A stretch of DNA of 64,000 bases, from assembly GCA_001000675.1 (NCBI GenBank), contig LCHW01000001.1:218294-282293 (forward strand). The letters run 5' to 3'. The notes beneath the pieces were generated by a model. The model ran no database searches. It was given only the letters and a program-made list of their open reading frames with translations, and had not been told where the DNA came from. Within the stretch, counting starts at the first letter, position 1. Every line of letters begins with the position of its first letter. Position numbers and translations under genes: made by a program. Source of the DNA: Candidatus Wolfebacteria bacterium GW2011_GWE2_44_13. GTDB taxonomy: Bacteria > Patescibacteriota > Minisyncoccia > UBA6257 > UBA9933. This document shows, one piece after another, positions 6,008-60,263 of this stretch.

Positions 6008-6090
6008 ATTATGCATAAAAGGGGTCAGCCACCATTAATTGTGATTATTTGTGCTATACTATTCATCAATAAATAATAATAATCATCACT

Positions 6091-6324
6091 ATGGATACCG
6101 AAGAAGACGATATAATAATAAAAGATGCATATGGAACTGTTCTTGCGAACGGTGATGCGGTTATTTTGGTCAAAGACCTAAAGGTGAAGGGTTCGACTGT
6201 GACGCTGAAAAAAGGTACGAAGATCAAGAACATTCGGCTTACTGATGACGAAGCAGAGATCGAATGCAATTCTGATGCAGTAAAGGGGCTTGTGCTGCGG
6301 ACCGAATTTGTGAAGAAAGCATAA
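6091..6324 (+). CDS. PhnA C-terminal domain protein (YjdC/PhnA-like), lacking the N-terminal zinc ribbon
   Basis: Near-colinear match to the PhnA C-terminal domain (GD.V.L.KDLKVKGS...KNIRL...IEC...EFVKK). Confidence 0.75.
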   Translation: MDTEEDDIIIKDAYGTVLANGDAVILVKDLKVKGSTVTLKKGTKIKNIRLTDDEAEIECNSDAVKGLVLRTEFVKKA

Positions 6325-6486: not shown

Positions 6487-8265
6487 ATGCACTCTATTAA
6501 AGAATATTTTCTCGCCCATAAAATCATCTCAATCGTTACCCTTATCGTTGTAGTATTTGCGGGGTATTGGGGGTATGGCAAGCTTACTGACACAAGTGCA
6601 GAACCACGTTATGTAACGGCAGCGGTGGAAAAGGGGACTTTGATTACTTCGATTACTGGAACCGGCCAAGTTTCCGCATCTAACCAGGTGGAATTAAAAG
6701 CAAAAGCGTCTGGCGATATCACTACTATTGCGGTTGTTAATGGACAAGAGGTTAAGGTGGGAGCACTTATTGTGCAGCTTGATGCGCGCGATGCGCAAAA
6801 GGCCGTACGCGATGCAGAAGTCAATTTGCAAAGTGCAAAATTATCGCTCGAAAAGCTCCGACAGCCTGCGGATACGCTTTCTGTGATTCAGTCGGAAAAT
6901 GCGTTGGCACAGGCACAACAAACAAAGCAAAACGCAGAAGATGACATCAAGAAAGCATACGATGATGGCTTCAATGCGATAGCAAATACATTTCTTGATA
7001 TCCCAACGATTATGACTGGGCTAGATGATGTATTTTTTTATGCAACAATCGATAAGGGAATGCCAAATATTAGTTGGTATATCAACCAGACATCAATCCA
7101 GGTTGCAGGGGAGCGCGAAAAGGCGATGCAAAACCAAGATGATTTTTATGCGGGATATAATGCATCGAGAGCGGCGTACACAAAAAACTTTGATGCCTAT
7201 AAGGCAGCTTCGAGAACGTCGAGTACGCAAACAATAGAGGCACTCATAGACGAAACGTATATGACCACGCGAACGATTGCCGATACGGTAAAGGCGGGCA
7301 ACAACCTTATCGACTTTGTAAAAGATTCTTTGACAAGAAACAATGTGAACGCAACCATTCCGGCAACAGTGGATGCGCATAAGGCAACATTAAATACATA
7401 CACAGGAACAACAAACGCGCACTTACTCAGCCTGCTTGCATTAAAGAGCACACTCAAGAGCAGTAGGGATGCAATTATAAATGCAGATCGAACGATAGCA
7501 GAAAAGACTGAATATATCGCAGACCTTAAGTCGGGCACTGACCCGCTCGATTTACAGGCACAGGAGTTGACTGTCCGACAGCGGGAAAATGCTCTACTTG
7601 ATGCGCGCGAGAAATTGGCCGATTATTATCTCCGAGCGCCTTTTTCTGGAACTATCGCAACATTGTCGATAAAATCATCCGACTCGATATCCTCTGGGTC
7701 TTCTATTGCAACGCTCATTACAAAACAAAAGCTTGCCGAAATATCACTTAACGAAGTTGACGTCGCAAAAGTGAAGGTGGGTCAAAAGGCAACCTTGGCA
7801 TTTGATGCGGTAGAAGGGTTGAGTATTAGCGGAGCGGTTGCCGAAATAGATACAGTAGGTGCCGTTTCTCAGGGTGTTGTGACGTATGTGGTAAAGATTG
7901 GATTTGATACGCAAGATGAGCGAGTAAAACCAGGAATGAGCGTTAGCGCTGCAATTATCACGGAAATGAAATCGGATGTTCTTACGGTCCCTAACAGTGC
8001 AGTAAAGACGCAAGACGATATCAGCTATGTTGAAATGTTTGAAGCGCCGCTTGAAAACGCGACGGGAACACAAGGTGCGATATCCTTGGTCGCTCCACAG
8101 CGAAAAACGGTAACAATAGGAATATCAAACGACACCATGACCGAAATCGTTTCTGGGCTACAAGAAGGAGATCAGATTATTACGCGGACGATAACGTCTT
8201 CTAACACGACTACGCAAACTGCCCCGAGTATATTCTCGACCGGAGGTGCGCGAATGGGTCGATAA
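6487..8265 (+). CDS. efflux transporter periplasmic adaptor (HlyD/MacA-like membrane fusion protein)
   Basis: N-terminal TM, a lipoyl/beta-barrel signature (ITGTGQV...ELKAK.SG.I) and long coiled coils. It sits immediately upstream of the ABC ATPase and permease. Confidence 0.75.
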   Translation: MHSIKEYFLAHKIISIVTLIVVVFAGYWGYGKLTDTSAEPRYVTAAVEKGTLITSITGTGQVSASNQVELKAKASGDITTIAVVNGQEVKVGALIVQLDARDAQKAVRDAEVNLQSAKLSLEKLRQPADTLSVIQSENALAQAQQTKQNAEDDIKKAYDDGFNAIANTFLDIPTIMTGLDDVFFYATIDKGMPNISWYINQTSIQVAGEREKAMQNQDDFYAGYNASRAAYTKNFDAYKAASRTSSTQTIEALIDETYMTTRTIADTVKAGNNLIDFVKDSLTRNNVNATIPATVDAHKATLNTYTGTTNAHLLSLLALKSTLKSSRDAIINADRTIAEKTEYIADLKSGTDPLDLQAQELTVRQRENALLDAREKLADYYLRAPFSGTIATLSIKSSDSISSGSSIATLITKQKLAEISLNEVDVAKVKVGQKATLAFDAVEGLSISGAVAEIDTVGAVSQGVVTYVVKIGFDTQDERVKPGMSVSAAIITEMKSDVLTVPNSAVKTQDDISYVEMFEAPLENATGTQGAISLVAPQRKTVTIGISNDTMTEIVSGLQEGDQIITRTITSSNTTTQTAPSIFSTGGARMGR

Positions 8266-11418: not shown

Positions 11419-12573
11419 ATGTACAAAATAAAAAGTAAGACATTGATGGTGTGCGTGGCTATCCTTATCGTGATGACCCTCACGACTCCCGTAATTACCT
11501 ATGCTGCTTGGTGGAATCCCGTCTCCTGGTTTAAAGTTTTGGTTTCCAAGATTATACCTAAAAGAGAAAAGGCACCGGAAAAGCCCCAGCCTCAAGCTAC
11601 GGAAGATTCTGGTTTTAAAAACGCGTCATCTTCAAGCAGTACTCCCGAATATCAGGTAGCTACGGGTAATGATTATCCACAACAGAATAATACCGGCAGC
11701 TCGAATAATAGTAGCCAGAGCAATAGCCAGAATGCAAATTCGAATGCAACATACTATGATGAAACGCCCGAGTTCCATGTAGCTTCATCGAGCGGTGGAC
11801 AGTCTAGCTCGGCATGTCCAGATACGGGTCAGCCTATGTGCGGTACAAATGGAGTTACCTATAGAAATTATTGTGAGTTGCAAAGTGCAGGCGCTACTTA
11901 TAACTATGGTTCAGCGTGCGTACCGCCAGCGAATACAGGCTCTTCAACTGGCTCAGCCTCGGGCTCGAACTCAGAAACGTCAGTCGGGTATTCGACTGGT
12001 TCTAATGCAACTACAGATACAAATGCCAGCGCTGCTTCGACCACTGCTACGGGCAGTGCTTCCAATGTGAACACTAATACTACTACTGGGTCGGGAACAG
12101 CGACCACAGGTGGCTCAGGCGCCGAAGTGGTAACGTTTAGCTGTGGCTTGTCGGCCAATCCGAGCCAAGCGGTTAATCTAAGAAATAGGACGGGGAGCTA
12201 CGAGTATCGGCCAATTCCGGCAACCGTTGGAGCGGATATAAAATGGTACACAAATATAATAAATACTGGCCCAGATGATATGGGTGAATGGAAGTCGGAA
12301 AATATTGGCATCGGTACGCGATGTTATTCAACTGTATATTATCAAATCGATTTAAACAGCGATAACACATGGGATGTTACTATGAAAGGGGATATGGCTC
12401 AATTGCGCGCCACCGACCCAAACATGGTAGATCATTTTGCCATCAAAAATTCTTCTAGTTGGAAGGCTGTTGCTGGAAATCATGCGTGGAGAATTTGCGC
12501 CGATGGAGCAAATAAGATTGACGAAACGAACGAAACTGATAATTGCGTTGAAGGAACAATAGAAGTTAAATAA
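11419..12573 (+). CDS. secreted low-complexity (S/T/N/G-rich) protein with a Kazal-type protease-inhibitor-like domain
   Basis: Signal/TM N-terminus. Kazal-like signature CPDTGQPMCGTNGVTYRNYCELQSAG...YGSAC. Long Ser/Thr/Asn/Gly linkers. Confidence 0.5.
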   Translation: MYKIKSKTLMVCVAILIVMTLTTPVITYAAWWNPVSWFKVLVSKIIPKREKAPEKPQPQATEDSGFKNASSSSSTPEYQVATGNDYPQQNNTGSSNNSSQSNSQNANSNATYYDETPEFHVASSSGGQSSSACPDTGQPMCGTNGVTYRNYCELQSAGATYNYGSACVPPANTGSSTGSASGSNSETSVGYSTGSNATTDTNASAASTTATGSASNVNTNTTTGSGTATTGGSGAEVVTFSCGLSANPSQAVNLRNRTGSYEYRPIPATVGADIKWYTNIINTGPDDMGEWKSENIGIGTRCYSTVYYQIDLNSDNTWDVTMKGDMAQLRATDPNMVDHFAIKNSSSWKAVAGNHAWRICADGANKIDETNETDNCVEGTIEVK

Positions 12574-19597: not shown

Positions 19598-20052
19598 TAT
19601 GCGATTTTTAGTATTTCAAATTCGCGTTCTTTTGTGCCGACCATTCCTTTTGCGCGTTGTCCCACTGCCTTATTAAGAAAAAGTGCCCCTAGTGGAGATG
19701 CGTATGAAAGGGTCTGTTCTGTAAAGGTGATATGACTTCCGATGCGAAATGTTTTTTCTTCGCCTGTTTCGCTATCGCGTGCGGTAACGGTATGGCCGAT
19801 TGCTACGGCGGCGTTTGTTTTGGGGATAGCGATTATCGTGGCATTTCTGCGAATATGCTCAAGGTCTTGCAAGCGTTGCTCCAATAATCGTGCCTGTTGC
19901 TGGGCATTTTCAAAAGGGAAGTTATCGTGCCATGTTTCAGAAGATTGCGTTACGGCATTGCGCAATTCTGCTCCCGTTTCCTGTAATTTCACAATGGTTT
20001 CTTCGATATATGACTCAAGTATTTTTAGATCGTCTTCGAGAAAATAAGGCAT
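19597..20052 (-). CDS. greA: transcription elongation factor GreA
   Basis: N-terminal coiled coil (LT..G...L..EL) and a C-terminal FKBP-like domain. Start at the Met at 20052 (MPYFLEDD). The longer ORF-track start at 20124 would include leader repeats. Confidence 0.8.
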   Translation of the reverse strand: MPYFLEDDLKILESYIEETIVKLQETGAELRNAVTQSSETWHDNFPFENAQQQARLLEQRLQDLEHIRRNATIIAIPKTNAAVAIGHTVTARDSETGEEKTFRIGSHITFTEQTLSYASPLGALFLNKAVGQRAKGMVGTKEREFEILKIA

Positions 20053-20055
20053 ACC

Positions 20056-20169
20056 TTTATATAACGAAGTATGGTCTATAAAGTTACGCTTCGTCGGTGC
20101 TATTGATACGGAAATGAAATACATTTATACAACGAAGTATGACCTATGAAGTCACGCTTCGTCGGTGCC
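20056..20169 (-). repeat. Two tandem ~45-bp imperfect direct repeats, each a stem-loop (ACGAAG...CTTCGT), in the greA 5' leader
   Basis: Copies at 20056-20100 and 20125-20169 share about 40 of 45 positions. A third hairpin CGTCGGTG-N19-CACCGACG follows at 20159-20193. Confidence 0.5.
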
Positions 20170-21838: not shown

Positions 21839-22276
21839 ATGAAATTTTTCATAGCGTCACCGTGGAAAAATAAGGAGCAGGTAGAGGAGCTTACCCAGGA
21901 ATTGGAGCAATTAGGGCACACTGCATATTCTTATGTGCAGAGCGGATCTAACCTGTTAACAGGAAAGCCTATTGAGGATGAAATGAAGGAATTTAGTCAG
22001 GCATTAACCAATTGGAAGATCGATGATCGCATTGGAAAAATTGCACAGTCTGAAATTCAGGCATTGCGAGAATCTGATATTGTTATTCTGCTCCTCCCTG
22101 CGGGAGATTCCTCGCACATGGAAGCGGGTATCGGATATGGAATGGGAAAGCGAATGGTGTTAATCGGACCAGTTGAAAAACCAGAAATCATCTATACATT
22201 GTTTAATCATGTGTATCTTGATATCAGTTCATTCTTGAAAGCATTTTCATTTGTTGAGCATAAAGATACTGCATAA
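21839..22276 (+). CDS. nucleoside 2-deoxyribosyltransferase-like protein
   Basis: Flavodoxin-like pattern of the NDT superfamily (ASPW...DIVILLLPAGDSSHMEAGIGYGMGKRMVLI). Start at the ATG at 21839. The longer ORF-track start overlaps fmt antisense. Confidence 0.45.
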   Translation: MKFFIASPWKNKEQVEELTQELEQLGHTAYSYVQSGSNLLTGKPIEDEMKEFSQALTNWKIDDRIGKIAQSEIQALRESDIVILLLPAGDSSHMEAGIGYGMGKRMVLIGPVEKPEIIYTLFNHVYLDISSFLKAFSFVEHKDTA

Positions 22277-22306
22277 AAATACCGCCCCATTGGGCGGTAT
22301 TTTTAT
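22277..22306. terminator. Bidirectional intrinsic terminator inside a 19-bp inverted repeat
   Basis: CTGCATAAAAATACCGCCC-catt-GGGCGGTATTTTTATGCAG. Confidence 0.65.
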
Positions 22307-22830
22307 GCAGTATCTTCTGTGTCAGATTCAACTGTTCCTTCGTGTAGGTTCTGTGCCTTGTCGATAAATACAATTCCGTTGAGATGATCAACTTCGTGTT
22401 GGAACACGCGTGCAATTAATCCAGTCGCGCGTATGGTTACGGCACGTTGGTGTTTATCAAATCCGGTAAGTACGATTTCTTTTGGACGGGTTACTGTGCC
22501 ATACGTATTAGGAACGCTGAGGCAGCCTTCCTCCATGGTAAACTGTTCTTTTGAAGGGCGTTCAATTTTTGGATTGAATATAGCATACCACTTTGGGCGG
22601 CCGTTTCTTTGTGGGATTCCTGCGACAAATAATTGCATGTCGAGCCCTACTTGGTTTGCGCTAAGCCCAACGCCATTTGCACGACGCATAATTGAGCGCA
22701 TGGTATTTACCAGTTCGCGAACTTCCTTCTCTGTATATTTTGAGAAATCAAAATTAGCCGGTCGTTTCCTGAGAAACTTTTCCTCCGACTTGTTGCTTAT
22801 CGTCCAAATTTGCTGATCGCTCGTTATCAT
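22303..22830 (-). CDS. def: peptide deformylase
   Basis: Motifs GVGLSANQVG, EGCLSVP and HEVDHLNG. Confidence 0.85.
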   Translation of the reverse strand: MITSDQQIWTISNKSEEKFLRKRPANFDFSKYTEKEVRELVNTMRSIMRRANGVGLSANQVGLDMQLFVAGIPQRNGRPKWYAIFNPKIERPSKEQFTMEEGCLSVPNTYGTVTRPKEIVLTGFDKHQRAVTIRATGLIARVFQHEVDHLNGIVFIDKAQNLHEGTVESDTEDTA

Positions 22831-23170: not shown

Positions 23171-23221
23171 TAGTATACATTTGTTCTCTAAATTTGTCTA
23201 GGGGCTGTACGGGTAAAATAT

Positions 23222-23285
23222 GTCATTCCCGCGGAGGCGGGAATCCACGGTATTTCATAGATTCCCGCCTCCGCGGGAATGACAA
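23222..23285. repeat. Inverted pair of the small palindromic repeat unit (copies 3a and 3b)
   Basis: gtcattcccgcggaggcgggaatcca, 13 nt, then attcccgcctccgcgggaatgacaa. The pair can form a 25-bp hairpin. Confidence 0.65.
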
Positions 23286-26064: not shown

Positions 26065-26222
26065 ACTTCAGGTGAGTAGATGTAATTAATGAACTGCTTG
26101 ATGATGAGTTTAGTAATACTCACGTTTGCATTACATGTAATTGCGCGTACTCTTATGAATAGTTAGGTTGTTACATATAAGTATATAGGAAGTCATCGTT
26201 TTTTAACATAACACAATTTCTT

Positions 26223-26677: not shown

Positions 26678-27091
26678 ATGGATAATCAGAATTTTGAAGC
26701 AGCAACACCAGAGACAAGCCAAATCGAATCGGATCTTAATCGTGTCAAGCAAGCTGTGCATGAACAAACAGGAGGAAGTGCAACGCCCGAAGTAACGGAG
26801 CGCGCGTTGGTGCGTCAGTCGTTGCAACCCATGGTTAATATAGCTAGTACTCCTGCTCCGACGCAGCAGACGCACGCGGCAGCGGATGACGCGATGCTCC
26901 CTGAATATCTAAAGGATGCTTCACCGGAAATAAAAGATCGTGTTGAGCGGCTTGTTGAAGATGCTTTTGCAAATGGCGTTGAGCACGCTGCTATTGCTGC
27001 GCAAGCATTTGGACCGTTTGTTGTAGATGCATTGCATGATGCGCTTTCGGATCGATTTTATGAGGAGTTGCAAAAACGAAAATTCGTCTAA
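26678..27091 (+). CDS. hypothetical protein
   Basis: ORF only. No motifs were recognised. Confidence 0.4.
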   Translation: MDNQNFEAATPETSQIESDLNRVKQAVHEQTGGSATPEVTERALVRQSLQPMVNIASTPAPTQQTHAAADDAMLPEYLKDASPEIKDRVERLVEDAFANGVEHAAIAAQAFGPFVVDALHDALSDRFYEELQKRKFV

Positions 27092-27122
27092 TATGCAACA
27101 CATGACACTGGCCGACTACTGT

Positions 27123-27203
27123 GTTGTGGGTCCCCATTACCTCAGTCGAAGCACTACTGTGCATCTTCCTCGCTAATGCTCCCACGCCTTGTATTCGACT
27201 CAG
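27123..27203 (+). promoter_or_regulatory. Conserved 5' element E1, upstream of the VirD4/TraD-like ATPase gene
   Basis: About 92% identical to 33418-33498. Both copies end exactly 39 bp before their downstream ATG. A terminal stem GTGGG/CCCAC can form. Confidence 0.55.
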
Positions 27204-27241
27204 TCTCATGTGTTGTATAGGTTTGTTAGTATCTTATTTAT

Positions 27242-29617
27242 ATGAATATATTTCTCATACTCCTTTCTATTGCCATTGCACTCCTTATTGTTATCGGTGT
27301 GCTGTATTTTTTTGTGCGACGAAAGGCGAATAGAGTGCGCATGCAACAAGCGCTTGATTTACACCTATTGTTGCTTCGCTTCCCGCGCATTCAGCGTGCT
27401 GATCAGGAAAAGAAGGACTTTAAAGATGAGATTAATCTTTCTGCGCAGTTGTACAGCACACTCCTTGGATTGAAAGTTCCGTTTGCGCTTGAAACTGCAG
27501 TACATCACGTGGGAGAAGAAATTCATTTTTATGTTGGCGTACCTAAGGGTGCGCTTGATCCAGTTCGTCGACAAATAGAGGGCTTGTTTAAAGATGTGCA
27601 AGTTGAGCCGGCTGACGATTACAATATATTTAATTCTACGGGTGTGAGTGCGGGTATGTATGTAAAACAGCATTATCCATACGCACTCCCTATCCGTACG
27701 TATCAAGAAGCGAATATCGATACATTCTCATCTATTCTCAGTGGATTTTCTAAGGTAAGTGAAATAGGTGAGGGAGCTGCATTGCAAGTTATCGTGCGCC
27801 CTGTTCCTGAATCTTCGAAAAAAACAGTGTTCAAAATGATTGGACAACTGCGACAAGGTGAAAAATTTGAGGACGTGCTTCGTGCTGATAGCGCATTGGG
27901 TGATATACAAAAAGCGCTCGTGGGTAAAAAAGAAGAAACCGTGGGAACTCCCGAGCAACCACGCACGGTGAATGAGGATGCCGTAAAGGCGCTCGAATCA
28001 AAGATTTCTAAGCCACTTGTATTTGCAAACGTGCGTGTTGTTACTTCTGCTATAAATACATTACAGGCAGAAGATATGTTAAGCGGTATTACGCATGGGT
28101 TTGCACAATTTGCCGCCCCTTTCCGACAAGAATTGCGCATTGCTAAGCCAAAACAATTACAAAAGTTTCTTCGGCAGTATTCGTTCCGCGAGTTTGACCA
28201 AGACACTGCTATTTGCTTGAACACAGAAGAAGTTGCGAGCTTATTTCATATGCCTACATCGTCACTCGAAGTTCCGCGTATTAAAATGTTGGAATCACGC
28301 GAATCGCCACCTCCAGAGAATTTGCCAAACGAGGGCACGCTTATCGGGGAGAGCTCTTTCCGTGGTGATGTGAAGAAAATATTTCTTACGCCACAAGACC
28401 GCATGCGCCATGTGTATGCCATTGGTCAAACGGGTACCGGTAAGTCTACCTTGCTTGTGCAGATGGCACTCGAAGATATTAAACAAGGCAAGGGTGTTTG
28501 TATTATCGATCCACACGGAGAGCTTGTTGATAAAACGCTGAGCCTCATCCCTGAACATCGCTATGATGATGTTATTGTGTTTGACCCAGCCGACATTGCA
28601 ACGCCGATGGGATTGAATATGCTCGAATACGATTTTAATAGACCTGAACAAAAGTCCTTTATTGTTGATGAGCTCTACAATATTATGGATAAGTTGTACG
28701 ACATGAAGACGTCGGGTGGTCCGATGTTTGAGTTGTATATGAAAAACGCTATTTTGTTGCTTATGGAAGATGCACGTAATGAGCCAGCAACAATCATGGA
28801 AATTCAACGGTTATTTACCGATGACGCGTTCCGTGAACGAAAGCTTGCGCGTATTCATAATCCTGTGGTTATTGATTTCTGGGAAAAGGAAGCTGCTAAA
28901 TCGACAGGAGAACATTCATTAGCAAACATGTCTTCCTATATTACGTCTAAGTTCAACGTGTTTACGACAAATGATTTTATGCGCCCGATTATCGGACAAA
29001 CGCAATCGTCGTTTAATTTTCGACAGGCAATGGATGAGGGGAAGATTTTGTTGGTGAGCTTGTCAAAAGGAAAAATCGGCGATTTTAACATGGGATTGCT
29101 TGGTATGATTATTGTTGGAAAAATATTGATGGCTGCATTGTCGCGTACGGATATTCCTGAGCATGAACGAAGGGAGTTTAATTTGTATCTTGACGAATTC
29201 CAAAATTTTTCTACGGATGCAATTTCTACGATATTTTCTGAAGCCCGTAAATATGCACTCAGCCTTACGGTTGCGCATCAATATGTAGGGCAGATGACAG
29301 ATAAGATAAAGGCGTCGGTGTTTGGTAACGTTGGATCAAAAATTATTCTTCGCGTTGGTATGGACGATGCAGAAGTGTTTGAAAAAGATCTTATGCCTAC
29401 GTTTACGAAAAATGATTTGGTAAACTTAAAAGCAGGACAGGCATATGCGAAGCCACTTATTAATGGGCAAGTAGTGCGGCCGTTTAACATACAGCTATTT
29501 AATGTGCAGTGGGGCGACCGAGGGCTTGTAGATAAATTGCGCGAGCTTTCTCGTTTGAAATATGGAAAGGATCGGGATAGTGTCGAGGGAGATATTTTGC
29601 GAAGATTACGATTATGA
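27242..29617 (+). CDS. TraD/TrwB/VirD4-like coupling-protein-type P-loop ATPase (T4SS DNA-transfer family) with an N-terminal TM anchor
   Basis: N-terminal TM. Walker A HVYAIGQTGTGKST, then GVCIIDPHGE and Walker B LYLDEFQNF. The 791-aa size fits. The exact subfamily is uncertain and HerA/FtsK-like alternatives are not excluded. Confidence 0.5.
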   Translation: MNIFLILLSIAIALLIVIGVLYFFVRRKANRVRMQQALDLHLLLLRFPRIQRADQEKKDFKDEINLSAQLYSTLLGLKVPFALETAVHHVGEEIHFYVGVPKGALDPVRRQIEGLFKDVQVEPADDYNIFNSTGVSAGMYVKQHYPYALPIRTYQEANIDTFSSILSGFSKVSEIGEGAALQVIVRPVPESSKKTVFKMIGQLRQGEKFEDVLRADSALGDIQKALVGKKEETVGTPEQPRTVNEDAVKALESKISKPLVFANVRVVTSAINTLQAEDMLSGITHGFAQFAAPFRQELRIAKPKQLQKFLRQYSFREFDQDTAICLNTEEVASLFHMPTSSLEVPRIKMLESRESPPPENLPNEGTLIGESSFRGDVKKIFLTPQDRMRHVYAIGQTGTGKSTLLVQMALEDIKQGKGVCIIDPHGELVDKTLSLIPEHRYDDVIVFDPADIATPMGLNMLEYDFNRPEQKSFIVDELYNIMDKLYDMKTSGGPMFELYMKNAILLLMEDARNEPATIMEIQRLFTDDAFRERKLARIHNPVVIDFWEKEAAKSTGEHSLANMSSYITSKFNVFTTNDFMRPIIGQTQSSFNFRQAMDEGKILLVSLSKGKIGDFNMGLLGMIIVGKILMAALSRTDIPEHERREFNLYLDEFQNFSTDAISTIFSEARKYALSLTVAHQYVGQMTDKIKASVFGNVGSKIILRVGMDDAEVFEKDLMPTFTKNDLVNLKAGQAYAKPLINGQVVRPFNIQLFNVQWGDRGLVDKLRELSRLKYGKDRDSVEGDILRRLRL

Positions 29618-33095: not shown

Positions 33096-33389
33096 ATGGC
33101 AATTGTACTTGAAGGAGAAAAAAAGAATATTGATTGGAGTTTTGCGCTCGGGACAGTGGTTGTAGTTGGTATCGTTGGAGCCTCTATAATCTATTTGTTT
33201 TTTGTGAGCCCAGAAACAGTGCAACAACTCACGACTCCTGAGCAACGCACGTTGAGCGAGTTTTCAAAAACTTCTTTTAAGCCTGAAGAAATTTTAAATA
33301 GTGCTGCGTTTCAGGAACTGCGAACTGTGGCGCCGCTTACGAGCCCGACGGAAGAGGAGGTGGGGAAAATAAACCCTTTCCTTCCTTAA
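33096..33389 (+). CDS. small single-TM protein, possibly a PilP-like accessory component
   Basis: 97 aa with one TM helix. It sits last in the pilMNO sub-cluster. Confidence 0.35.
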   Translation: MAIVLEGEKKNIDWSFALGTVVVVGIVGASIIYLFFVSPETVQQLTTPEQRTLSEFSKTSFKPEEILNSAAFQELRTVAPLTSPTEEEVGKINPFLP

Positions 33390-33417
33390 AATTTTCTACG
33401 GCTGGTGCACTCCTTCG

Positions 33418-33498
33418 TTGTGGGCCCCCATTACCTCGGTCGAAGCACTATCGTGCATCTTCCTCGCTAATGCTCCCACGTCTTGTATTGCACTCAAG
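33418..33498 (+). promoter_or_regulatory. Conserved 5' element E2, upstream of pilB
   Basis: A paralogous copy of 27123-27203, with identical 39-bp spacing to the start codon. Confidence 0.55.
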
Positions 33499-33536
33499 CG
33501 TAAAAAATTTCTCAACTTTATTTTCGAACGAACTTT

Positions 33537-35276
33537 ATGGACAACAAAACACTCATTGACGCATTAATTCAAGATGGGCTCCTCGGAGAAATCGAAGGGC
33601 GTAAGGTGCTGCAAGAAGCGGCGCTTGCGCGTCGGCAAGTAGATGAGTTGATTTACGAACAGCGTTTAGTTGATGAAGAACAGCTTGCCATGGAAAAGGG
33701 CAAGCTTTTGAATGTGCCCTATCGAAAAATAGATCCACAAGAAATTCTCGATGATACGCTTAAACTGTTCCCAGAAGAAACAGTGCGTAACTATAAAGTT
33801 ATTCCGATCAGTATTAAGGATGACATGTTAGTGGTGGGGATGATTAACCCAGATGATGCACAGGCCCAGGAGGCGCTTAAATTTATTGCAAAGCAGCGTC
33901 GATTAAATTTGGGAGCATATATTATTACTCAAGCATTGTGGGAGCTTGTTTTACGTCGTTATTCTCCGTATCGAAGTCTTATTGACGAAGCGGTGAAGGC
34001 GAGCACATCACTTGCATCGAAAAATACTGGACCAACACAAGTTGTGCGGCTCGAAGAAAATAAGGGAGCAAGTGCTGACGAAACGCCTATTATCCGTATT
34101 GTATCGACCACACTTAAAGAGGCAGTTTGGGAAAAGGCTTCGGATATCCACATAGAACCACAACGCAATCGTGGGCGTATTCGCTTTCGTATTGACGGTG
34201 AGTTGCGGGAAGTTTCTTCGTTTCCGCTTGTTCTGCACGCATCGATTGTTTCTCGTATTAAAATTCTTGCGAACTTAAAGATAGACGAAACGCGTATTCC
34301 GCAAGACGGACGTTTTCGAACCGTGCTCTTTGGGCGCGATATCGATTATCGTGTTGCTACGTTTCCAACTCCTGTAGGGGAGAAGGTTGTTATCCGTGTG
34401 CTTGACCCATCGACTGGTTTGAAAGGCCTTGAAGATCTTGGATTACGCGGTAAAAATTTACAAACCGTAAAAACAGGGATTGAAAAACCATACGGCGTTA
34501 TTTTGATTACTGGTCCTACGGGATCTGGAAAAAGTACGACACTGTATGCATTGATGCAATTGCTAAATAAAGAAGACATTAACATTGTTAGTCTTGAAGA
34601 TCCAGTTGAATATTACATGGATGGATTAAACCAATCGCAGGTAAAGCCTGAAATCGGATATGACTTCGCCTCTGGTTTGCGACAAATTCTTCGACAAGAT
34701 CCAGATGTTATCATGGTAGGAGAAATCCGCGATGAAGAAACTGCGGGGCTTACTATCCAGGCTGCGTTAACCGGACATATTGTGCTTTCCACATTACACA
34801 CGAACAATTCGGTTGGCGTTATTCCGCGTCTTATGGATATGAAGGTACAGCCGTTTCTTATTCCTGCAGCACTTAACATTATGCTTGCACAGCGATTAAT
34901 AACGCGTTTGTGCCAACAATGCCGTGTGAGTGACGTTGCGTCGCCACAAGTTACAGAAGTTATTAGCCGTGAACTCGCACAGCTATCTCCAGAAATTCGC
35001 AGTGCGTATCCTGCTCAAGGACCCTATTCAGTATTCCATTCTCCAGGATGTGAAGCGTGTAAGGGGAAAGGAGTTTCAGGGCGCCTCGCAGTATTTGAGG
35101 TTATGATCATGACTCCTGAATTGGAAAAGGTTATCAATGAAGGCGCAACCGAAGCCTCGATTCTTGCGGAAGCTCGCCGACAAGGTATGGTTACGATGCA
35201 CCAAGACGGTATTCTTAAGGCGCTTGAAGGTTTGGTTTCAATTGAAGAAGTTTTGCGAGAGACCGTTGAAATGTGA
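33537..35276 (+). CDS. pilB: type IV pilus assembly ATPase PilB (GspE family)
   Basis: N-terminal GSPII_E_N domain, Walker A GPTGSGKST, Asp/His boxes and the tetracysteine motif CxxC...CxxC. Confidence 0.85.
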   Translation: MDNKTLIDALIQDGLLGEIEGRKVLQEAALARRQVDELIYEQRLVDEEQLAMEKGKLLNVPYRKIDPQEILDDTLKLFPEETVRNYKVIPISIKDDMLVVGMINPDDAQAQEALKFIAKQRRLNLGAYIITQALWELVLRRYSPYRSLIDEAVKASTSLASKNTGPTQVVRLEENKGASADETPIIRIVSTTLKEAVWEKASDIHIEPQRNRGRIRFRIDGELREVSSFPLVLHASIVSRIKILANLKIDETRIPQDGRFRTVLFGRDIDYRVATFPTPVGEKVVIRVLDPSTGLKGLEDLGLRGKNLQTVKTGIEKPYGVILITGPTGSGKSTTLYALMQLLNKEDINIVSLEDPVEYYMDGLNQSQVKPEIGYDFASGLRQILRQDPDVIMVGEIRDEETAGLTIQAALTGHIVLSTLHTNNSVGVIPRLMDMKVQPFLIPAALNIMLAQRLITRLCQQCRVSDVASPQVTEVISRELAQLSPEIRSAYPAQGPYSVFHSPGCEACKGKGVSGRLAVFEVMIMTPELEKVINEGATEASILAEARRQGMVTMHQDGILKALEGLVSIEEVLRETVEM

Positions 35277-35362
35277 TAGAATGCATGTAATAGATTCCGT
35301 GTGGCACGATACAATATTTCGTTTAGGCCCATGCGACAATACACAATACATATATTATTTTT

Positions 35363-36436: not shown

Positions 36437-36557
36437 GAAAGCTCGTAAGCTCGTAAGAAAAGAAGCTTGTAAGCAAATACAGACAGAGGTGGCGCGCCGC
36501 GTACTTCACTCACTGCATGCGTTTTACAGGAGGGAATTTAGTTGGAAAATCATACTC

Positions 36558-37769
36558 ATGAAATTTAAATACCAAGCAAGAAATAAAGACGGGGAACTGC
36601 AGGTTGGGTTCGTCGAGTCATATTCGCAAAACGGTGCGGCGGATGTTTTGGTATCACATGGCCTATATGTATTGAGTCTCGAAAATGAATCAAAGGATAA
36701 TTTCTTTGATAAGTTTTTGGCCATGTTTAAGCATGTTTCGTTGACCGATCTCATGATCTTTACGCGACAATTTGCAACGCTTATGGAGGCAAAGGTTTCC
36801 CTTGGAGACTCTATGAAAAATCTCCAAAAGCAAACGCGTAGTGCGATGATGAAAGAGGTAATTTATGAAATCGGTACGGATGTTGATAGCGGCTTGTCGT
36901 TATCGCAGGCACTTGAGCGACAAAAAGACGTTTTTTCTGAATTCTATGTCAGCATGATTCGATCCGCGGAAATAACAGGCCGGCTCGAAGAGGCTATTAT
37001 TTATCTTGCCGAATATATTGAAAAGCAGAAGCTGTGGCGTTCCCGCATTATCAACGCATTGATTTATCCGGCAATTCTTGTGGCCATGTTTCTTGGTATT
37101 GTGGTACTTATGGTCACAATGATCTTGCCGAATATTAAGCCAATCTTAATAGAAGCGGGTGATCTTCCTTGGTACACCGATGTGGTGCTTAACGGAGGTG
37201 ATTTTATTATTGCGTGGTGGTGGATTGCTATTATTGTTATCATTCCTGCAGTCATGTTTTTTCTTGAATATATCCGCAGTGATGAGGGAAAGGTTGTTGT
37301 TGATGAGGTGTTGTTGCGAACGCCGGTGTTTGGGTCGCTTTTTTCAAAAATGTATATCGCACGCTTTGCGGAGTCGCTCGGCATTCTTGTGAAGGGCGGT
37401 ATTCCTATTGCGCAAGCACTCGAAATTACGTCGCGTTCAATTGGGAGTAGCGTGTTTCAAGATATTCTCCATGATGTAAGTGATCGAGTTCGAGGAGGAG
37501 AGCTGCTTTCTGCTGCTCTTGAACGCTATGAGTACTATTTCCCTTCGCTGGTGAGTCAGATGATTGCTATTGGTGAAACAACAGGGCGACTTGAAGAATT
37601 GTTAGGACGTATTGCTATTTTCTATACCCGTGACGTTGATGATATGATGAGTCGGCTTGGTGAGTTGGTGCAGCCACTTATCATCGCAATCATTGGTGTG
37701 TTTGTTGGGTTCTTGTTTGCTTCTATCCTTGTTCCGATATATAATTTAGTTAAGTCGTTTGGCGGATAG
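36558..37769 (+). CDS. pilC: type IV pilus platform protein PilC (GspF family)
   Basis: Two T2SSF repeats with three TM segments. Start at MKFKYQ. Confidence 0.8.
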   Translation: MKFKYQARNKDGELQVGFVESYSQNGAADVLVSHGLYVLSLENESKDNFFDKFLAMFKHVSLTDLMIFTRQFATLMEAKVSLGDSMKNLQKQTRSAMMKEVIYEIGTDVDSGLSLSQALERQKDVFSEFYVSMIRSAEITGRLEEAIIYLAEYIEKQKLWRSRIINALIYPAILVAMFLGIVVLMVTMILPNIKPILIEAGDLPWYTDVVLNGGDFIIAWWWIAIIVIIPAVMFFLEYIRSDEGKVVVDEVLLRTPVFGSLFSKMYIARFAESLGILVKGGIPIAQALEITSRSIGSSVFQDILHDVSDRVRGGELLSAALERYEYYFPSLVSQMIAIGETTGRLEELLGRIAIFYTRDVDDMMSRLGELVQPLIIAIIGVFVGFLFASILVPIYNLVKSFGG

Positions 37770-53104: not shown

Positions 53105-53130
53105 GATTCCGGCTTCCGCCGGAATGACAA
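53105..53130. repeat. Small palindromic repeat unit (GC variant ATTCCGGCG), copy 4a
   Basis: gattccggcttccgccggaatgacaa. It is inverted relative to copy 4b. Confidence 0.6.
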
Positions 53131-53193
53131 TACAAAAATACAGCACAAAGATAAGCATCCATATTTTAAGAGGAAGGTTGAGCTCCTTCGTGT

Positions 53194-53219
53194 GTCATTC
53201 CGGCGGAGGCCGGAATCCA
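53194..53219. repeat. Small palindromic repeat unit, copy 4b
   Basis: gtcattccggcggaggccggaatcca. With 4a it brackets a 63-bp AT-rich spacer. A partial unit also occurs at 53521-53535. Confidence 0.6.
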
Positions 53220-55409: not shown

Positions 55410-57449
55410 ATGGCCTTTTATTTTCGAAGTATGGCAAAAAAAGCAGAAAACATCGAAGAATTACCTCAAGAGGAGAAAGAAGTAAAGAAGGTCGCTACTA
55501 AAAAAGGAGACGATCCTATTGATAACCGTGGAAATGCTTCCTATAGCGCCAAGGATATTCAGGTACTCGAAGGTTTAGAGCCTGTGCGTAAGCGCCCAGG
55601 TATGTATATCGGTTCAACGGGGTCGCAAGGGTTGCACCATCTTATTTGGGAAGTGTTCGACAACTCGCTCGACGAGGCTATGGCAGGATATGCCAAGCAC
55701 ATTACGGTAGAGCTTGGAAAGGATGGGTCTGTTACGGTGTCCGATGATGGACGTGGTATCCCTGTCGACATTCATCCGAAGACGAAAAAGTCTGCGCTTG
55801 AAACAGCCGCAACAACCTTGCACGCAGGAGGAAAATTTGATGGCGATTCGTATAAGGTATCTGGTGGTTTGCACGGGGTAGGACTTTCGGTTGTAAACGC
55901 GCTTTCCACATGGATGAAGATAGAAGTGTGCAAAGATGGTTCGAAGTATATGCAGGAGTACCGAATCGGTAAGCCGTTAGCTGATGTTAAAAAAATTGGC
56001 AAAGCTGAGCGAGGAAACGGAACAAAGGTTACGTTCAAGCCAGATGATACTATTTTTTCTACTCTTGAATTTGAGCGAAAAGAAATTGTCGGGCACTTGC
56101 GCCAGCAGGCGTTTCTTACTAAGGGTATCCGCATTGAAATTATCGATAGTCGAGAAGATGTGCCTTTTTACTACTCGTTCTATTTTGAAGGAGGACTTGT
56201 TTCATTTGTACAATATGTGAATAGCAGTCATACCCCCGTACATAAAGAGGTTTTTTATGTACATCGCAGCTACGAAGATATCGATGTTGAAACGGCATTT
56301 ATTTATAACGACGATCCCGATGCGCGTGAATTGAGCTTTGCAAACAATATTTATACACCTGACGGTGGTATGCATGTTACCGGTTTTCGCACTGCTTTGA
56401 CTCGTGTATTAAATGACTTTGCTCGAAGCAACAATGCAATAAAAGGATCAGATGAAAACCTAACAGGTGACGATGTGCGCGAGGGCATCACCGCAATTAT
56501 TTCTGTAAAATTGCGCGACCCACAATTTGAAGGACAGACAAAAGCTCGCCTTGGAACGCCTGCAGCACGCGGCGCAGTTGAATCTGTTGTATCGGAAGGT
56601 CTTAAAGAATATTTTGAAAAATATTCAAACGATGCAAAGGCAATCATTGAAAAATGTATGCTTGCGCAGAAAGCTCGTAAAGCTGCAAAGGCTGCAAAAG
56701 AAACCGTATTGCGTAAGGGAATGCTCGAGGGCATGACCTTGCCAGGAAAGCTTTCAGATTGCTCGAGCCGCAAAGCCGCTGACTCGGAACTCTATATTGT
56801 TGAGGGAGATTCCGCAGGAGGAAGTGCAAAGCAGGGAAGAGATCGCCGCTTTCAAGCCATTCTTCCTTTGAAGGGAAAGATTTTAAACGTTGAACGAGCC
56901 CGTTTGGATAAGATGCTTGTTAACAATGAAATCAAGTCATTGGTTATTGCATTGGGCACTGCTATTTCGGATAGCTTTGATATCGAGAAGTTGCGCTACC
57001 ATAAGGTTATCCTTATGACCGACGCCGATGTTGACGGTGCGCACATCAGAACATTGTTGCTAACATTGTTTTATCGATATTTCCGACAAATTATTGAAGG
57101 AGGATTTTTGTATATTGCACAACCACCATTGTTCCGATTACAGATTGGAAAGGATGTTCGCTACGTGTATACTCCTGAGCAGAAAGATACCGCAATCGCA
57201 GAAATGACTGCAGGGAAAAAAGGTGAAGCGAATGTTAATGTGCAGCGCTATAAGGGTCTTGGAGAAATGAACCCTGACCAGCTGTGGGAAACGACCATGA
57301 ACCCTGAATTTCGAACTCTATTGCAAGTCGCTATCGATGATGCACAAGAGGCAGATCGATTGTTTGAAATCTTAATGAGTGACGAGGTTGCCCCGAGAAA
57401 ACAATTCATCCAGTCAAAAGCTACTCTTGTAAAAAATCTCGACATCTAA
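55410..57449 (+). CDS. gyrB: type IIA topoisomerase ATPase subunit, DNA gyrase subunit B (ParE not strictly excluded)
   Basis: GHKL ATPase motifs (EVFDNSLDEAMAGY, GGLHGVGLSVVNALS), a TOPRIM domain (EGDSAGGSA), PLKGKILNVE and C-terminal GyrB motifs. Confidence 0.8.
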   Translation: MAFYFRSMAKKAENIEELPQEEKEVKKVATKKGDDPIDNRGNASYSAKDIQVLEGLEPVRKRPGMYIGSTGSQGLHHLIWEVFDNSLDEAMAGYAKHITVELGKDGSVTVSDDGRGIPVDIHPKTKKSALETAATTLHAGGKFDGDSYKVSGGLHGVGLSVVNALSTWMKIEVCKDGSKYMQEYRIGKPLADVKKIGKAERGNGTKVTFKPDDTIFSTLEFERKEIVGHLRQQAFLTKGIRIEIIDSREDVPFYYSFYFEGGLVSFVQYVNSSHTPVHKEVFYVHRSYEDIDVETAFIYNDDPDARELSFANNIYTPDGGMHVTGFRTALTRVLNDFARSNNAIKGSDENLTGDDVREGITAIISVKLRDPQFEGQTKARLGTPAARGAVESVVSEGLKEYFEKYSNDAKAIIEKCMLAQKARKAAKAAKETVLRKGMLEGMTLPGKLSDCSSRKAADSELYIVEGDSAGGSAKQGRDRRFQAILPLKGKILNVERARLDKMLVNNEIKSLVIALGTAISDSFDIEKLRYHKVILMTDADVDGAHIRTLLLTLFYRYFRQIIEGGFLYIAQPPLFRLQIGKDVRYVYTPEQKDTAIAEMTAGKKGEANVNVQRYKGLGEMNPDQLWETTMNPEFRTLLQVAIDDAQEADRLFEILMSDEVAPRKQFIQSKATLVKNLDI

Positions 57450-57480
57450 TTAAGAATGCATTTTGTCAACAAATCGTTGC

Positions 57481-57548
57481 GTTGCGGGTCCCCAGTGCTT
57501 CGGTTGCCGTATTGATAATACGTCGCCCTTGCACTGTTCCCGCGCCTT
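57481..57548 (+). promoter_or_regulatory. Divergent third member (E3) of the E1/E2 element family, upstream of secE-nusG-rplK
   Basis: Same 68-nt length. Ends GTTGCGGGTCCCCA...TTCCCGCGCCTT are conserved and the middle is divergent. The terminal stem GCGGG/CCCGC covaries with GTGGG/CCCAC of E1/E2. Confidence 0.3.
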
Positions 57549-57671
57549 ATGCTTTATTCGACAAAATGTATTCTCACCGCATTGCTGGCTAATGTGTGCT
57601 AACCATATAAAACCTTGCATTTTACTGGGGTTTAGTGTATGGTAATTACTGTCTAACATATTATATATATT

Positions 57672-57857
57672 ATGGTTTCACGTCTTACTTCCTATTTCAG
57701 AGAATCACAACTCGAACTCAAGCGGGTTAATTGGCCTACTCGACAAGAAACGGTGCGGTTAACGAGCATGGTTATTGGACTTTCGCTTATATTTGCCGTA
57801 TTTTTGGGCATTTTGGATATGGTATTTAACTATATTCTTGTTCAATACTTCATCTAA
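57672..57857 (+). CDS. secE: preprotein translocase subunit SecE
   Basis: 61 aa with a single C-terminal TM helix. Its position upstream of nusG fits. Confidence 0.7.
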   Translation: MVSRLTSYFRESQLELKRVNWPTRQETVRLTSMVIGLSLIFAVFLGILDMVFNYILVQYFI

Positions 57858-59007: not shown

Positions 59008-59739
59008 ATGGATATCAAGAAGAAAACAGTTTTTATTACTGGTGCCGCATCGGGTATCGGACTGGAGACTGCTAAAAAATTTATACAAGAAGGCGCAAAC
59101 GTAACCATCTATTCTCGGGGAACCAATAAAATTCCCGAAGATGCATTCCCGGCTGATCGCGTATTAATTTGCGAAGGAGATGTGTGTGACCGAGATGCTG
59201 TGGGACGATCGGTAAATGCAACAATGAAAAAGTTTGGCTCGCTCGATGTTCTTATTAATAATGCGGGCGTTGCACAGAGAAAGCGATTTGAAGATATGCT
59301 CGAAGAGGAATGGAACAAGATGCTCAATGTGAATTTGTGTGGAATGTTCATCGTTACGCAGGAAGCACTTAAGGCTATGGTTACAGGAGCTCCAGAGCGC
59401 CACCATGATGGGTGTATTGTTAACCATAAATGCATCATTAATATTTCATCGGGAGCTGGGCTGTTCGGCATCCCCGAACTTTCGATTTATTCAGCAACAA
59501 AAGGTGCTATCATCGCCTTCACGCAGGCGTTGTCAGGCGAGTTGGTCCAGTCGGGGATTGAGGTTATTGCCGTTACCCCAGGGTCTGTCGGGACTGACAT
59601 GTTCAAGGACTTGTTTAAGGGAAAGGAAGCCCACCACACCCCCGCAGATGTCGCTGAGGTGCTCTACAAGACGGCCATTGGGGAAATGAAGCCCGATAGT
59701 CGCCTAATCGTCGACACGTTCTATCACGAGCGGGTTTGA
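59008..59739 (+). CDS. SDR-family oxidoreductase (short-chain dehydrogenase/reductase)
   Basis: TGAASGIG cofactor motif, NNAG, and the catalytic S...YSATK. Confidence 0.8.
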   Translation: MDIKKKTVFITGAASGIGLETAKKFIQEGANVTIYSRGTNKIPEDAFPADRVLICEGDVCDRDAVGRSVNATMKKFGSLDVLINNAGVAQRKRFEDMLEEEWNKMLNVNLCGMFIVTQEALKAMVTGAPERHHDGCIVNHKCIINISSGAGLFGIPELSIYSATKGAIIAFTQALSGELVQSGIEVIAVTPGSVGTDMFKDLFKGKEAHHTPADVAEVLYKTAIGEMKPDSRLIVDTFYHERV

Positions 59740-59740
59740 A
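59698..59740 (+). repeat. 43-bp perfect direct repeat, copy 1 (3' end of the SDR gene)
   Basis: agtcgcctaatcgtcgacacgttctatcacgagcgggtttgaa. It is identical to 60221-60263. Confidence 0.8.
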
Positions 59741-60230
59741 AAGGAACAATATGAAAAACGAAATTGAACGAAAATTTTTTGTTAAGGAAATGACAGATCT
59801 TTCCGGCGCGCAGCCCCTTCATTATGAGCGTTATTTTCTGGATCGTGGGAATGGAAAAGAAGTTAGAATTTCTAAAATAAACGATTCATATATTTATGAA
59901 GAAAAATCTGAGTTATCCGAGTTAGAACGAACCCGCGATAAAAAAGAAATAACAAAAGAAGAATTTTATAAATTGAAGGAAAATGCTTCTGAGGGTCTTA
60001 TCCGTGACCGCTATAGCTTTTCTTCGAACCCCGATATTGTTATTCAGGTGTATCATGGGCGGTTTGAAGGGCTAGTTTGCGCTGAAGTTGAATTTGATTC
60101 TGCGGAAGCTGCAAACGCATTTTCTCCGTTGTCTTGGATGGGTAGAGAAATGACTGGGTTGCCAATTGCACGTGATGCTCGACTTATTGAGTTGAGTAGC
60201 GAAGAATTTAAAAAATATTTAGTCGCCTAA
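59736..60230 (+). CDS. CYTH-domain protein (triphosphate tunnel metalloenzyme / class IV adenylate cyclase-like)
   Basis: N-terminal EIERKF (ExExK) motif and a CYTH-sized 164 aa. The gene is bracketed by the 43-bp direct repeats. Confidence 0.6.
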   Translation: MKRNNMKNEIERKFFVKEMTDLSGAQPLHYERYFLDRGNGKEVRISKINDSYIYEEKSELSELERTRDKKEITKEEFYKLKENASEGLIRDRYSFSSNPDIVIQVYHGRFEGLVCAEVEFDSAEAANAFSPLSWMGREMTGLPIARDARLIELSSEEFKKYLVA

Positions 60231-60263
60231 TCGTCGACACGTTCTATCACGAGCGGGTTTGAA
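60221..60263 (+). repeat. 43-bp perfect direct repeat, copy 2 (3' end of the CYTH gene)
   Basis: Identical to 59698-59740. It retains a ghost of the SDR C-terminal reading frame (SRLIVDTFYHERV*). Confidence 0.8.

Follow-up and report, generated by a model that had tools for sequence, protein, structure and literature searches.

A family of structured intergenic hairpin repeats, REP/ERIC-like in character, beside type IV pilus and housekeeping genes of Candidatus Wolfebacteria

The window analysed here is a stretch of 64,000 nucleotides from a groundwater-dwelling Candidatus Wolfebacteria, one of the candidate phyla radiation (CPR) bacteria. It includes a type IV pilus (T4P) locus in which genes for a VirD4/TraG-type protein and PilB are accompanied by those for ComFC, PilM, PilO, PilT, PilC, a pilin and PilD (Table 1). 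Pfam matches support the assignment of the first two as secretion-type ATPases, as proposed in an earlier sequence-only reading of this DNA. Each of the two ATPase genes is separated from a small upstream gene by a copy of the same element. A repeat search of the window aligned positions 27108-27202 with 33402-33496 (95 nt, 86% identity, direct orientation) and found no further copy at that similarity, and the 55-nt core pattern matches the window in these two places only, with 0.00 matches expected from 100 shuffles. The identity of about 92% previously claimed for the pair is close to what is found, with 73 of 81 positions identical over 27123-27203 (90%) and 68 of 74 over the core at 27123-27196 (92%). 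The second copy, first placed at 33418-33498, is off by one, the right register being 33417-33497. Both copies lie upstream of their start codons (ATG at 27242 and 33537), but at spacings that differ by 1 nt and not at an identical 39 bp, the repeats being offset by 6294 and the start codons by 6295. Comparison of the two copies also confirms that the sequence downstream of the repeat diverges.

Table 1. Hairpin elements of the window and the genes that flank them
Feature	Position	Strand	Details
Tentative mini-element, basal boxes only (GAACTGCT...TTGCAT)	26079..26149	+	14.4 bits, E 0.1, weak
137-aa ORF	26678..27091	+	no Pfam match; stop TAA 27089-27091 abuts copy 1
Copy 1, full imperfect hairpin	27092..27219	+	model match 27101-27212; core 27123-27203; 89.8 bits (R2)
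VirD4/TraG-like coupling-type P-loop ATPase	27242..29617	+	3' of copy 1; T4SS-DNA_transf, TrwB_AAD_bind, TraG-D_C
97-aa ORF	33096..33389	+	last gene of pilM-N-O block; stop TAA 33387-33389 abuts copy 2
Copy 2, full hairpin	33389..33510	+	model match 33395-33506; core 33417-33497; 84.0 bits (R2)
pilB (T2SSE ATPase, MshEN domain)	33537..35276	+	3' of copy 2; T2SSE E 4e-126
gyrB	55410..57449	+	stop 57447-57449, 3 nt before copy 3 base
Copy 3, diverged member	57453..57574	+	model match 57459-57570; 86.8 bits (R2); between gyrB and secE
secE	57672..57857	+	3' of copy 3; then nusG, rplK

Every copy of the element comprises one unbranched imperfect hairpin, which across the family measures about 110-130 nt. 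From the base upwards it is built of a site-specific outer stem, basal boxes, a variable and covarying middle helix, internal loops and an apical hairpin. The basal boxes are conserved and read CGAAYTGCTKYGTTGCGGG in the 5' arm and CCCGCGCCTYGCAYYTCAY in the 3' arm. Conservation extends to parts that lie outside the search pattern: the internal loops, which are rich in pyrimidines (TCGGTC and CTTCCTC), and the hairpin at the apex (CGTAC-loop-GTACG). The outer stem and middle helix vary freely, with covariation. The GTGGG and CCCAC segments, whose pairing had been predicted from copies 1 and 2, do pair and form helix 2 of the fold. In alignments of 17 and 44 distinct sequences, 91% and 92% of the pair cells are standard pairs, compared with 69% in column shuffles and 31-53% when the partners are slid by 1-3 columns, and 28 and 27 of the 31 pairs, respectively, are changed on both sides; helix 2 and the 3' box look more conserved in these comparisons than they are, since the metagenome set was collected with a strict pattern. 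The secondary structure of the family is thus conserved and backed by covariation.

The stem reaches a median of 9 bp into flanks that are particular to each site, compared with 4.2 bp in controls that re-pair the flanks of different elements, and often takes in the stop codon of the upstream gene. Since the stem extends beyond the modelled ends, the full hairpins of the window are those delimited in Table 1. The unit of about 80 bp first described is therefore too small: the model match covers 112 nt and the whole hairpin about 125 nt. The outer stem of copy 1 is formed by TATGCAACACATGA/TCATGTGTTGTATA, and a strain variant of copy 2 (L002) retains the fold. With its conserved structure and abundant compensatory changes, the element is a discrete module, as the sequence-only reading had argued, and not the duplication of a promoter plus leader.

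Orthologous T4P loci with PilB identities of 79-90% carry diverged hairpin elements at several intergenic sites. We built a covariance model (R1) from eight elements in the relatives' T4P loci. Applied to PilB-centred loci that total 1.4 Mb, it gave 22 matches. One is a third copy in the window, where only two had been noted before (57459-57570; 76 bits, E 3e-18). Copy 3 is about 58% identical to copies 1 and 2. A second model (R2), run with filters off, finds these three full copies in the window and no others. Metagenome contigs were scanned with a strict two-box pattern that yielded 43 stretches, in which the model finds 58 copies, and about 55 distinct copies are recognized by the covariance model in relatives and metagenomes. 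The same strict pattern has zero matches in viral contigs. Copies can be numerous on one molecule: the 647-kb contig Ga0209727_1000002 carries 11 or more, the 893-kb contig Ga0208375_1000002 six or more, and L093 five within 14 kb.

Reduced and distant members were also observed. The tentative mini-element of the window is located in a divergent intergenic region upstream of a bPH_2 gene, at a position orthologous to that of a mini-element in L010 (1941-2006; 23.8 bits, E 5.6e-4). Two more distant genomes, L085 and L027, contain weak and degenerate forms in which the CTGCGTTGC and GCGCCTTG boxes are retained. L068, which is labelled Kaiserbacteria and whose PilB is 44% identical, has copies at 6551-6661 and 11860-11970. 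Both run opposite to the pilus genes; one separates pilM from the gene after it, and the other pilT from pilC. A near-identical version of high GC content (66-68%) occurs on seven contigs from different metagenomes (L098, L109, L115, L117, L119, L125 and L130), directly after a thiolase gene in L098 and L115; its host may be outside Wolfebacteria. Literature searches on repeats, MITEs and RNA motifs of CPR bacteria, Parcubacteria and Wolfebacteria gave no account of the element.

All copies are intergenic, and most are anchored to a stop codon. An upstream neighbour was called for 48 distinct copies. For 39 of them this gene is co-oriented, and in 35 of those 39 the model match starts between -2 and +11 nt from the stop codon, the distance to the next start codon being far more variable. 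In the window, the hairpin bases lie 0, -1 and 3 nt after the respective stop codons: copy 1 begins directly after the TAA of the 137-aa ORF, the base of copy 2 overlaps the final base of the TAA of the 97-aa ORF, and copy 3 follows gyrB. Their 3' ends lie 22 nt before the ATG at 27242, 26 nt before the ATG of pilB and 97 nt before that of secE (57672). Elsewhere, eight copies are positioned between convergent genes, four in divergent regions, and five are inverted relative to both neighbours, including both copies of L068 and one in the L4-L23 gap. Co-oriented copies outnumber inverted ones by 39 to 5, an overwhelming bias to sense. L129 has one copy on each strand, and both run in the direction of their own genes; L131 is a counter-example.

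The neighbouring genes are diverse. They include gyrB, secE, gyrA, UDG, ftsA/ftsZ, atpB/atpE/atpF, rplK, rplJ/rplL, rpsG, rplD/rplW and nrdA, as well as genes for a sigma factor, RseP, LOG, FolD, thiolase and pilins, and pilC and pilT. Small genes needed in high copy carry the element ([E]) on both sides, as seen for atpE and two pilins in L093 (atpB-[E]-atpE-[E]-atpF and pilin-[E]-pilin-[E]) and for rplL in L112 (rplJ-[E]-rplL-[E]). With such neighbours, and with the upstream stop codon as its anchor, the element is not associated with the 5' UTRs of one gene family or pathway and is not specific for pilus genes. T4P loci make up about one fifth of the distinct sites, by a rough count from an unbiased scan, which is above their gene share and far from exclusive. 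Given this apparent over-representation, the element may have a local influence on pilus gene expression.

The occupancy of individual sites differs between related genomes. The window and L005 have the element before the VirD4-like gene, where L009 and L010 have a 3-nt gap; the site before pilB is occupied in five of six related species, with a 14-nt gap in L008; and the site between pilT and pilC is occupied in L005 and L007 only. The sequence-only reading had named absence from close relatives as evidence against its own proposal, and such absence is found in L009 and L010 for the first site and in L008 for the second, the pilB site being retained in the other species. Insertion polymorphism is thus observed between related genomes, in which gains and losses are indistinguishable because their coding DNA shares only about 70-75% identity. 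Copies 1 and 2 are much more alike than orthologous copies: their cores are 90-92% identical and their basal stems differ, with compensating changes (CGA/TCG versus GCA/TGC). The near-identical cores between differing basal stems point to a core that was recently copied or gene-converted between the two sites. Variable occupancy and the likeness of copies 1 and 2 both fit mobility or gene conversion.

Other spacers of the locus differ even among strains with 100% identical PilB. The pilB-pilT spacer measures 86 nt in the window (35277-35362) and 195 nt in L002/L003 (4741-4935), and the pilT-pilC spacer measures 124 nt (36437-36560) and 201 nt (6013-6213), respectively. Intergenic regions change rapidly across such strains. 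Only a 3'-box-like remnant (GCGCCGCGTACTTCACTCA) is left in the pilT-pilC spacer of the window.

Several known identities were examined. A search of the whole window against Rfam 15 at the gathering threshold returned two tRNAs only, and permissive Rfam scans around copies 1 and 3 and in L093 gave nothing better than E 0.1, far below gathering scores. Promoter and terminator scans revealed none at or after the elements, with counts not above those of shuffles; no terminator-like site was detected at the three window copies, and no U-tract adjoins the element. A promoter-like TTGCAT-17-TATGGT, recognized by eye between copy 3 and secE, fails the scan criteria and is not claimed, and the conserved TTGCAY of the 3' box was rejected as a -35 hexamer, there being no consistent -10 at the right spacing. 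The longest direct repeat flanking the element averages 5.9 nt, compared with 5.7 nt in shuffled flanks, which provides no sign of a target-site duplication. A sole case among 52 copies, at 4500-4660 of L129, is flanked by a 15-nt direct repeat (AAAGTAAAACACATG) plus an inverted flank. No transposase was found among about 65 Pfam-scanned genes, of which about 50 flank copies. Integron attC sites have the consensus RYYYAAC/GTTRRRY, which the boxes do not resemble, and the neighbours are syntenic core genes; this identity was rejected, as were hairpin-ribozyme-like and kink-turn motifs, which by inspection the loop sequences do not fit. Mimicry of an anti-Shine-Dalgarno sequence by CTTCCTC was put aside because Wolfebacteria have no CCUCC anti-Shine-Dalgarno sequence (PMC10783764) and the downstream leaders have no Shine-Dalgarno sequence. 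The leader of pilB, GAACGAACYTT-ATG, is itself kept across species (window 33522-33536, L005 7986-8000, L007 4286-4300); in all three it is without a Shine-Dalgarno sequence, which is consistent with the reported lack of the anti-Shine-Dalgarno sequence.

The strand on which the element acts was approached through its base pairs and the predicted stability of its folds. After clustering at 85% identity, G-U pairs outnumber A-C pairs by 34 to 23 (p = 0.18). Assignment of the sense strand from the raw ratio of 90:25 was rejected since it hinged on one invariant U-G pair and on near-identical sequences, and base-pair statistics do not discriminate between the strands. By prediction, 49 of 54 copies are more stable as antisense RNA (mean -45.8 versus -39.3 kcal/mol) because the internal loops, which are 78% pyrimidine on the sense strand, are purine-rich on the antisense strand. 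At operon ends, canonical stem-plus-T-run terminators are located just downstream of the element (L112, L093, L123 and L108), which places the element within the transcript. It is thus probably co-transcribed with its flanking genes.

The element resembles several known systems. In the malE-malF REP, Rhodobacter puf and E. coli papBA, intercistronic stabilising hairpins set operon stoichiometry. Such hairpins lie after, or on both sides of, cistrons that are needed in larger amounts, here atpE, rplL and pilins; they are individual and locus-specific, whereas the present element is a sequence-conserved family reused at many loci. In Clostridia, c-di-GMP riboswitches are found upstream of type IV pilin genes. 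The element shares with these leader RNAs a structured nature and a location upstream of type IV pilus genes, but it has no Rfam match, is not tied to a single gene family, is anchored to stop codons and forms an unbranched hairpin without an aptamer-like junction. REPs stabilise upstream mRNA and, when less than about 15 nt from the stop codon, can lower the translation of the upstream gene. Like the REP/BIME/REPIN elements of E. coli and Pseudomonas, the present family consists of dispersed extragenic imperfect palindromes with many copies per genome, typically at the 3' ends of genes and probably co-transcribed. Its conserved inverted boxes around a variable middle helix recall the two inverted arms and variable spacer of those elements, which form a hairpin of about 100 nt in single-stranded DNA or mRNA (Bertels and Rainey 2011, PMC3116915). 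It shares no sequence similarity with them, its arms do not have the form of short REP palindromes that carry a GTAG-type motif at the 5' end, and the sampled loci showed no RAYT gene. Its copy number is lower (tens), its orientation is strongly biased towards sense, and both the apical hairpin and the internal loops are conserved. Elements of the ERIC (about 127 bp) and Correia/NEMIS (about 104-157 bp) types are similar in size and are likewise imperfect palindromes of transcribed intergenic regions that form RNA hairpins and whose presence differs between relatives; some of them alter mRNA stability, ERIC through an RNase E site (PMC3184786). They have terminal inverted repeats with TA target duplications and occur in both orientations, whereas our element has no target duplication and is biased to one orientation; nothing comparable to the promoters and IHF sites of Correia elements was detected in it. 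Like a MITE, the element is an imperfect palindrome in the 100-150 bp range and has inverted repeats at its ends. The element is best read as a new REP/ERIC-like family of intergenic hairpin repeats in Candidatus Wolfebacteria and some relatives.

As to its role, we lean towards a co-transcribed, structured cistron boundary that affects RNA processing, stability or termination-reinitiation, a reading that draws on the anatomy and distribution of the copies. The element would be transcribed within the mRNA of the upstream gene, and its hairpin may then act as a barrier to ribonucleases, or as a target of them, and so set the relative stability of the neighbouring cistrons. It might also interfere with termination-reinitiation. 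An unstructured leader of about 22-26 nt would remain before the next start codon, in an organism where Shine-Dalgarno sequences are scarce. Copies 1 and 2 would then separate the VirD4-like gene and pilB from small upstream genes and would not constitute a pilus-specific switch.

Such a boundary would be of interest because the hosts have tiny, compact genomes without a canonical anti-Shine-Dalgarno sequence, and a 125-nt hairpin is placed at tens of their gene boundaries, often around high-copy genes. It could offer a concrete handle on expression tuning within operons. What is gained in any case is a documented new family of structured intergenic repeats in CPR bacteria, with a covariance model that lets annotators mask or label such sites, and the tempting but wrong inference of a dedicated regulator linking the two secretion ATPases of the competence-pilus locus is removed.

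A possible, though rather less likely, alternative is that the element is selfish or neutral mobile palindromic DNA of a REPIN- or MITE-like kind. A trans-acting enzyme would recognise the single-stranded DNA hairpin and spread it, copies would survive where they are least harmful, between a stop codon and the next leader, and arm-to-arm correction together with gene conversion would preserve the palindrome. Multiple copies per genome, differences in presence at syntenic sites among relatives and the 90-92% identity of copies 1 and 2 between differing basal stems all agree with such an origin, as do the inverted copies, the similar subtypes at non-orthologous sites of different genomes (for example L005:843 and L008:9830) and a patchy phyletic distribution that takes in L068 and a high-GC lineage. 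Conserved arms with a variable centre are a feature of REPINs (PMC3116915), and template switching from arm to arm can mimic compensatory changes without selection on RNA. The weight of these points is reduced by the flanks, which have no target-site duplication, by the Pfam-scanned genes, which include no transposase, by an orientation bias that tracks gene direction in L129, and by the viral contigs, which gave no copy. Moreover, the hosts' genomes are very small and compact, and copies within a genome are old and diverged, as copy 3 is from copies 1 and 2, yet fold and loop sequences are kept. If the element is mobile after all, selfish DNA would persist even in such streamlined genomes.

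A stronger version of the cistron-boundary reading, which we consider unlikely, is that the element represents an undescribed RNA module, recognised by a protein through its conserved loops and acting as genome-wide 'operon punctuation' at cistron boundaries, and is not junk DNA. The base of the hairpin, set on the stop codon, would control the fate of both ribosome and transcript at the boundary, for instance by maintaining termination-reinitiation coupling across the 125-nt insert, or by protecting and boosting small high-copy cistrons such as atpE, rplL and the pilins.

It is quite improbable that the element works as an intrinsic terminator or attenuator of unusual form, ending or lowering transcription after the upstream gene. 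Its position immediately after stop codons, in convergent regions as well, would suit this role, and many 3' flanks are T-rich (TGTTTTAC, CGTTTTAT) and pair with an A-rich 5' flank, as in bidirectional terminators. However, the T-rich flank belongs to the stem, leaving no free tail, and is inconsistent between copies; at none of the three window copies does the terminator scan report a site; operon ends have canonical terminators downstream of the element; and copies lie between tightly linked operon genes (atpB-atpE-atpF, rplJ-rplL and ftsA-ftsZ). Even less probable is that the antisense strand, or a protein-bound structured RNA, is the functional molecule. The greater predicted stability of the antisense fold and the conserved loop sequences are compatible with it, and on that strand the loops are rich in purines and contain tandem G-A oppositions (CGAG/GAGC), a trait of many protein-binding RNA motifs. 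Yet no evident promoter-like sequence for antisense transcription was seen, the near-invariant U-G pair closing helix 2 would turn into a C-A mismatch, and in the co-directional operons that house most copies it is the sense strand that is transcribed. Finally, the operator, riboregulator or 5'-UTR structure shared by the VirD4-like and PilB genes that the sequence-only reading had proposed for the pilus motor genes is scarcely credible: two near-identical copies at almost equal distances from the start codons, the frequent occupancy of the pilB site and the share of T4P loci among all sites speak for it, but the distribution largely refutes it, the same family being found beside many unrelated housekeeping genes and between convergent genes, anchored to the upstream stop codon, without a match to an Rfam regulatory family, and absent before either gene in some relatives.

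The window contains other repeats. A second, unrelated family comprises a short G+C-rich hairpin (TGTCATTCCCGCGGAGGCGGGAATC) with 86-100% identity, often in inverted pairs, at 775-806, 1891-1918, 23220-23285, 53105-53133 and 53192-53219 of the window and at about 6070-6110 of L002. At 23220-23285, two inverted copies are 14 nt apart, and the related copy in L002 is part of its longer pilT-pilC spacer. A perfect 44-nt direct repeat (59697-59740 and 60220-60263) brackets a 164-aa ORF without a Pfam match (59736-60230); its first copy forms the 3' end of a short-chain dehydrogenase gene and its second starts at the stop codon of the 164-aa ORF, so that repeat and ORF together look like an insertion that duplicated its target. 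At 22263-22316, between convergent ORFs, two 25-nt arms separated by a 4-nt loop (AAGATACTGCATAAAAATACCGCCC / GGGCGGTATTTTTATGCAGTATCTT) form a perfect inverted repeat that may be a bidirectional terminator. Positions 20051-20168 contain a tandem pair of 50-nt units with 88% identity and a start-to-start distance of 68 nt.
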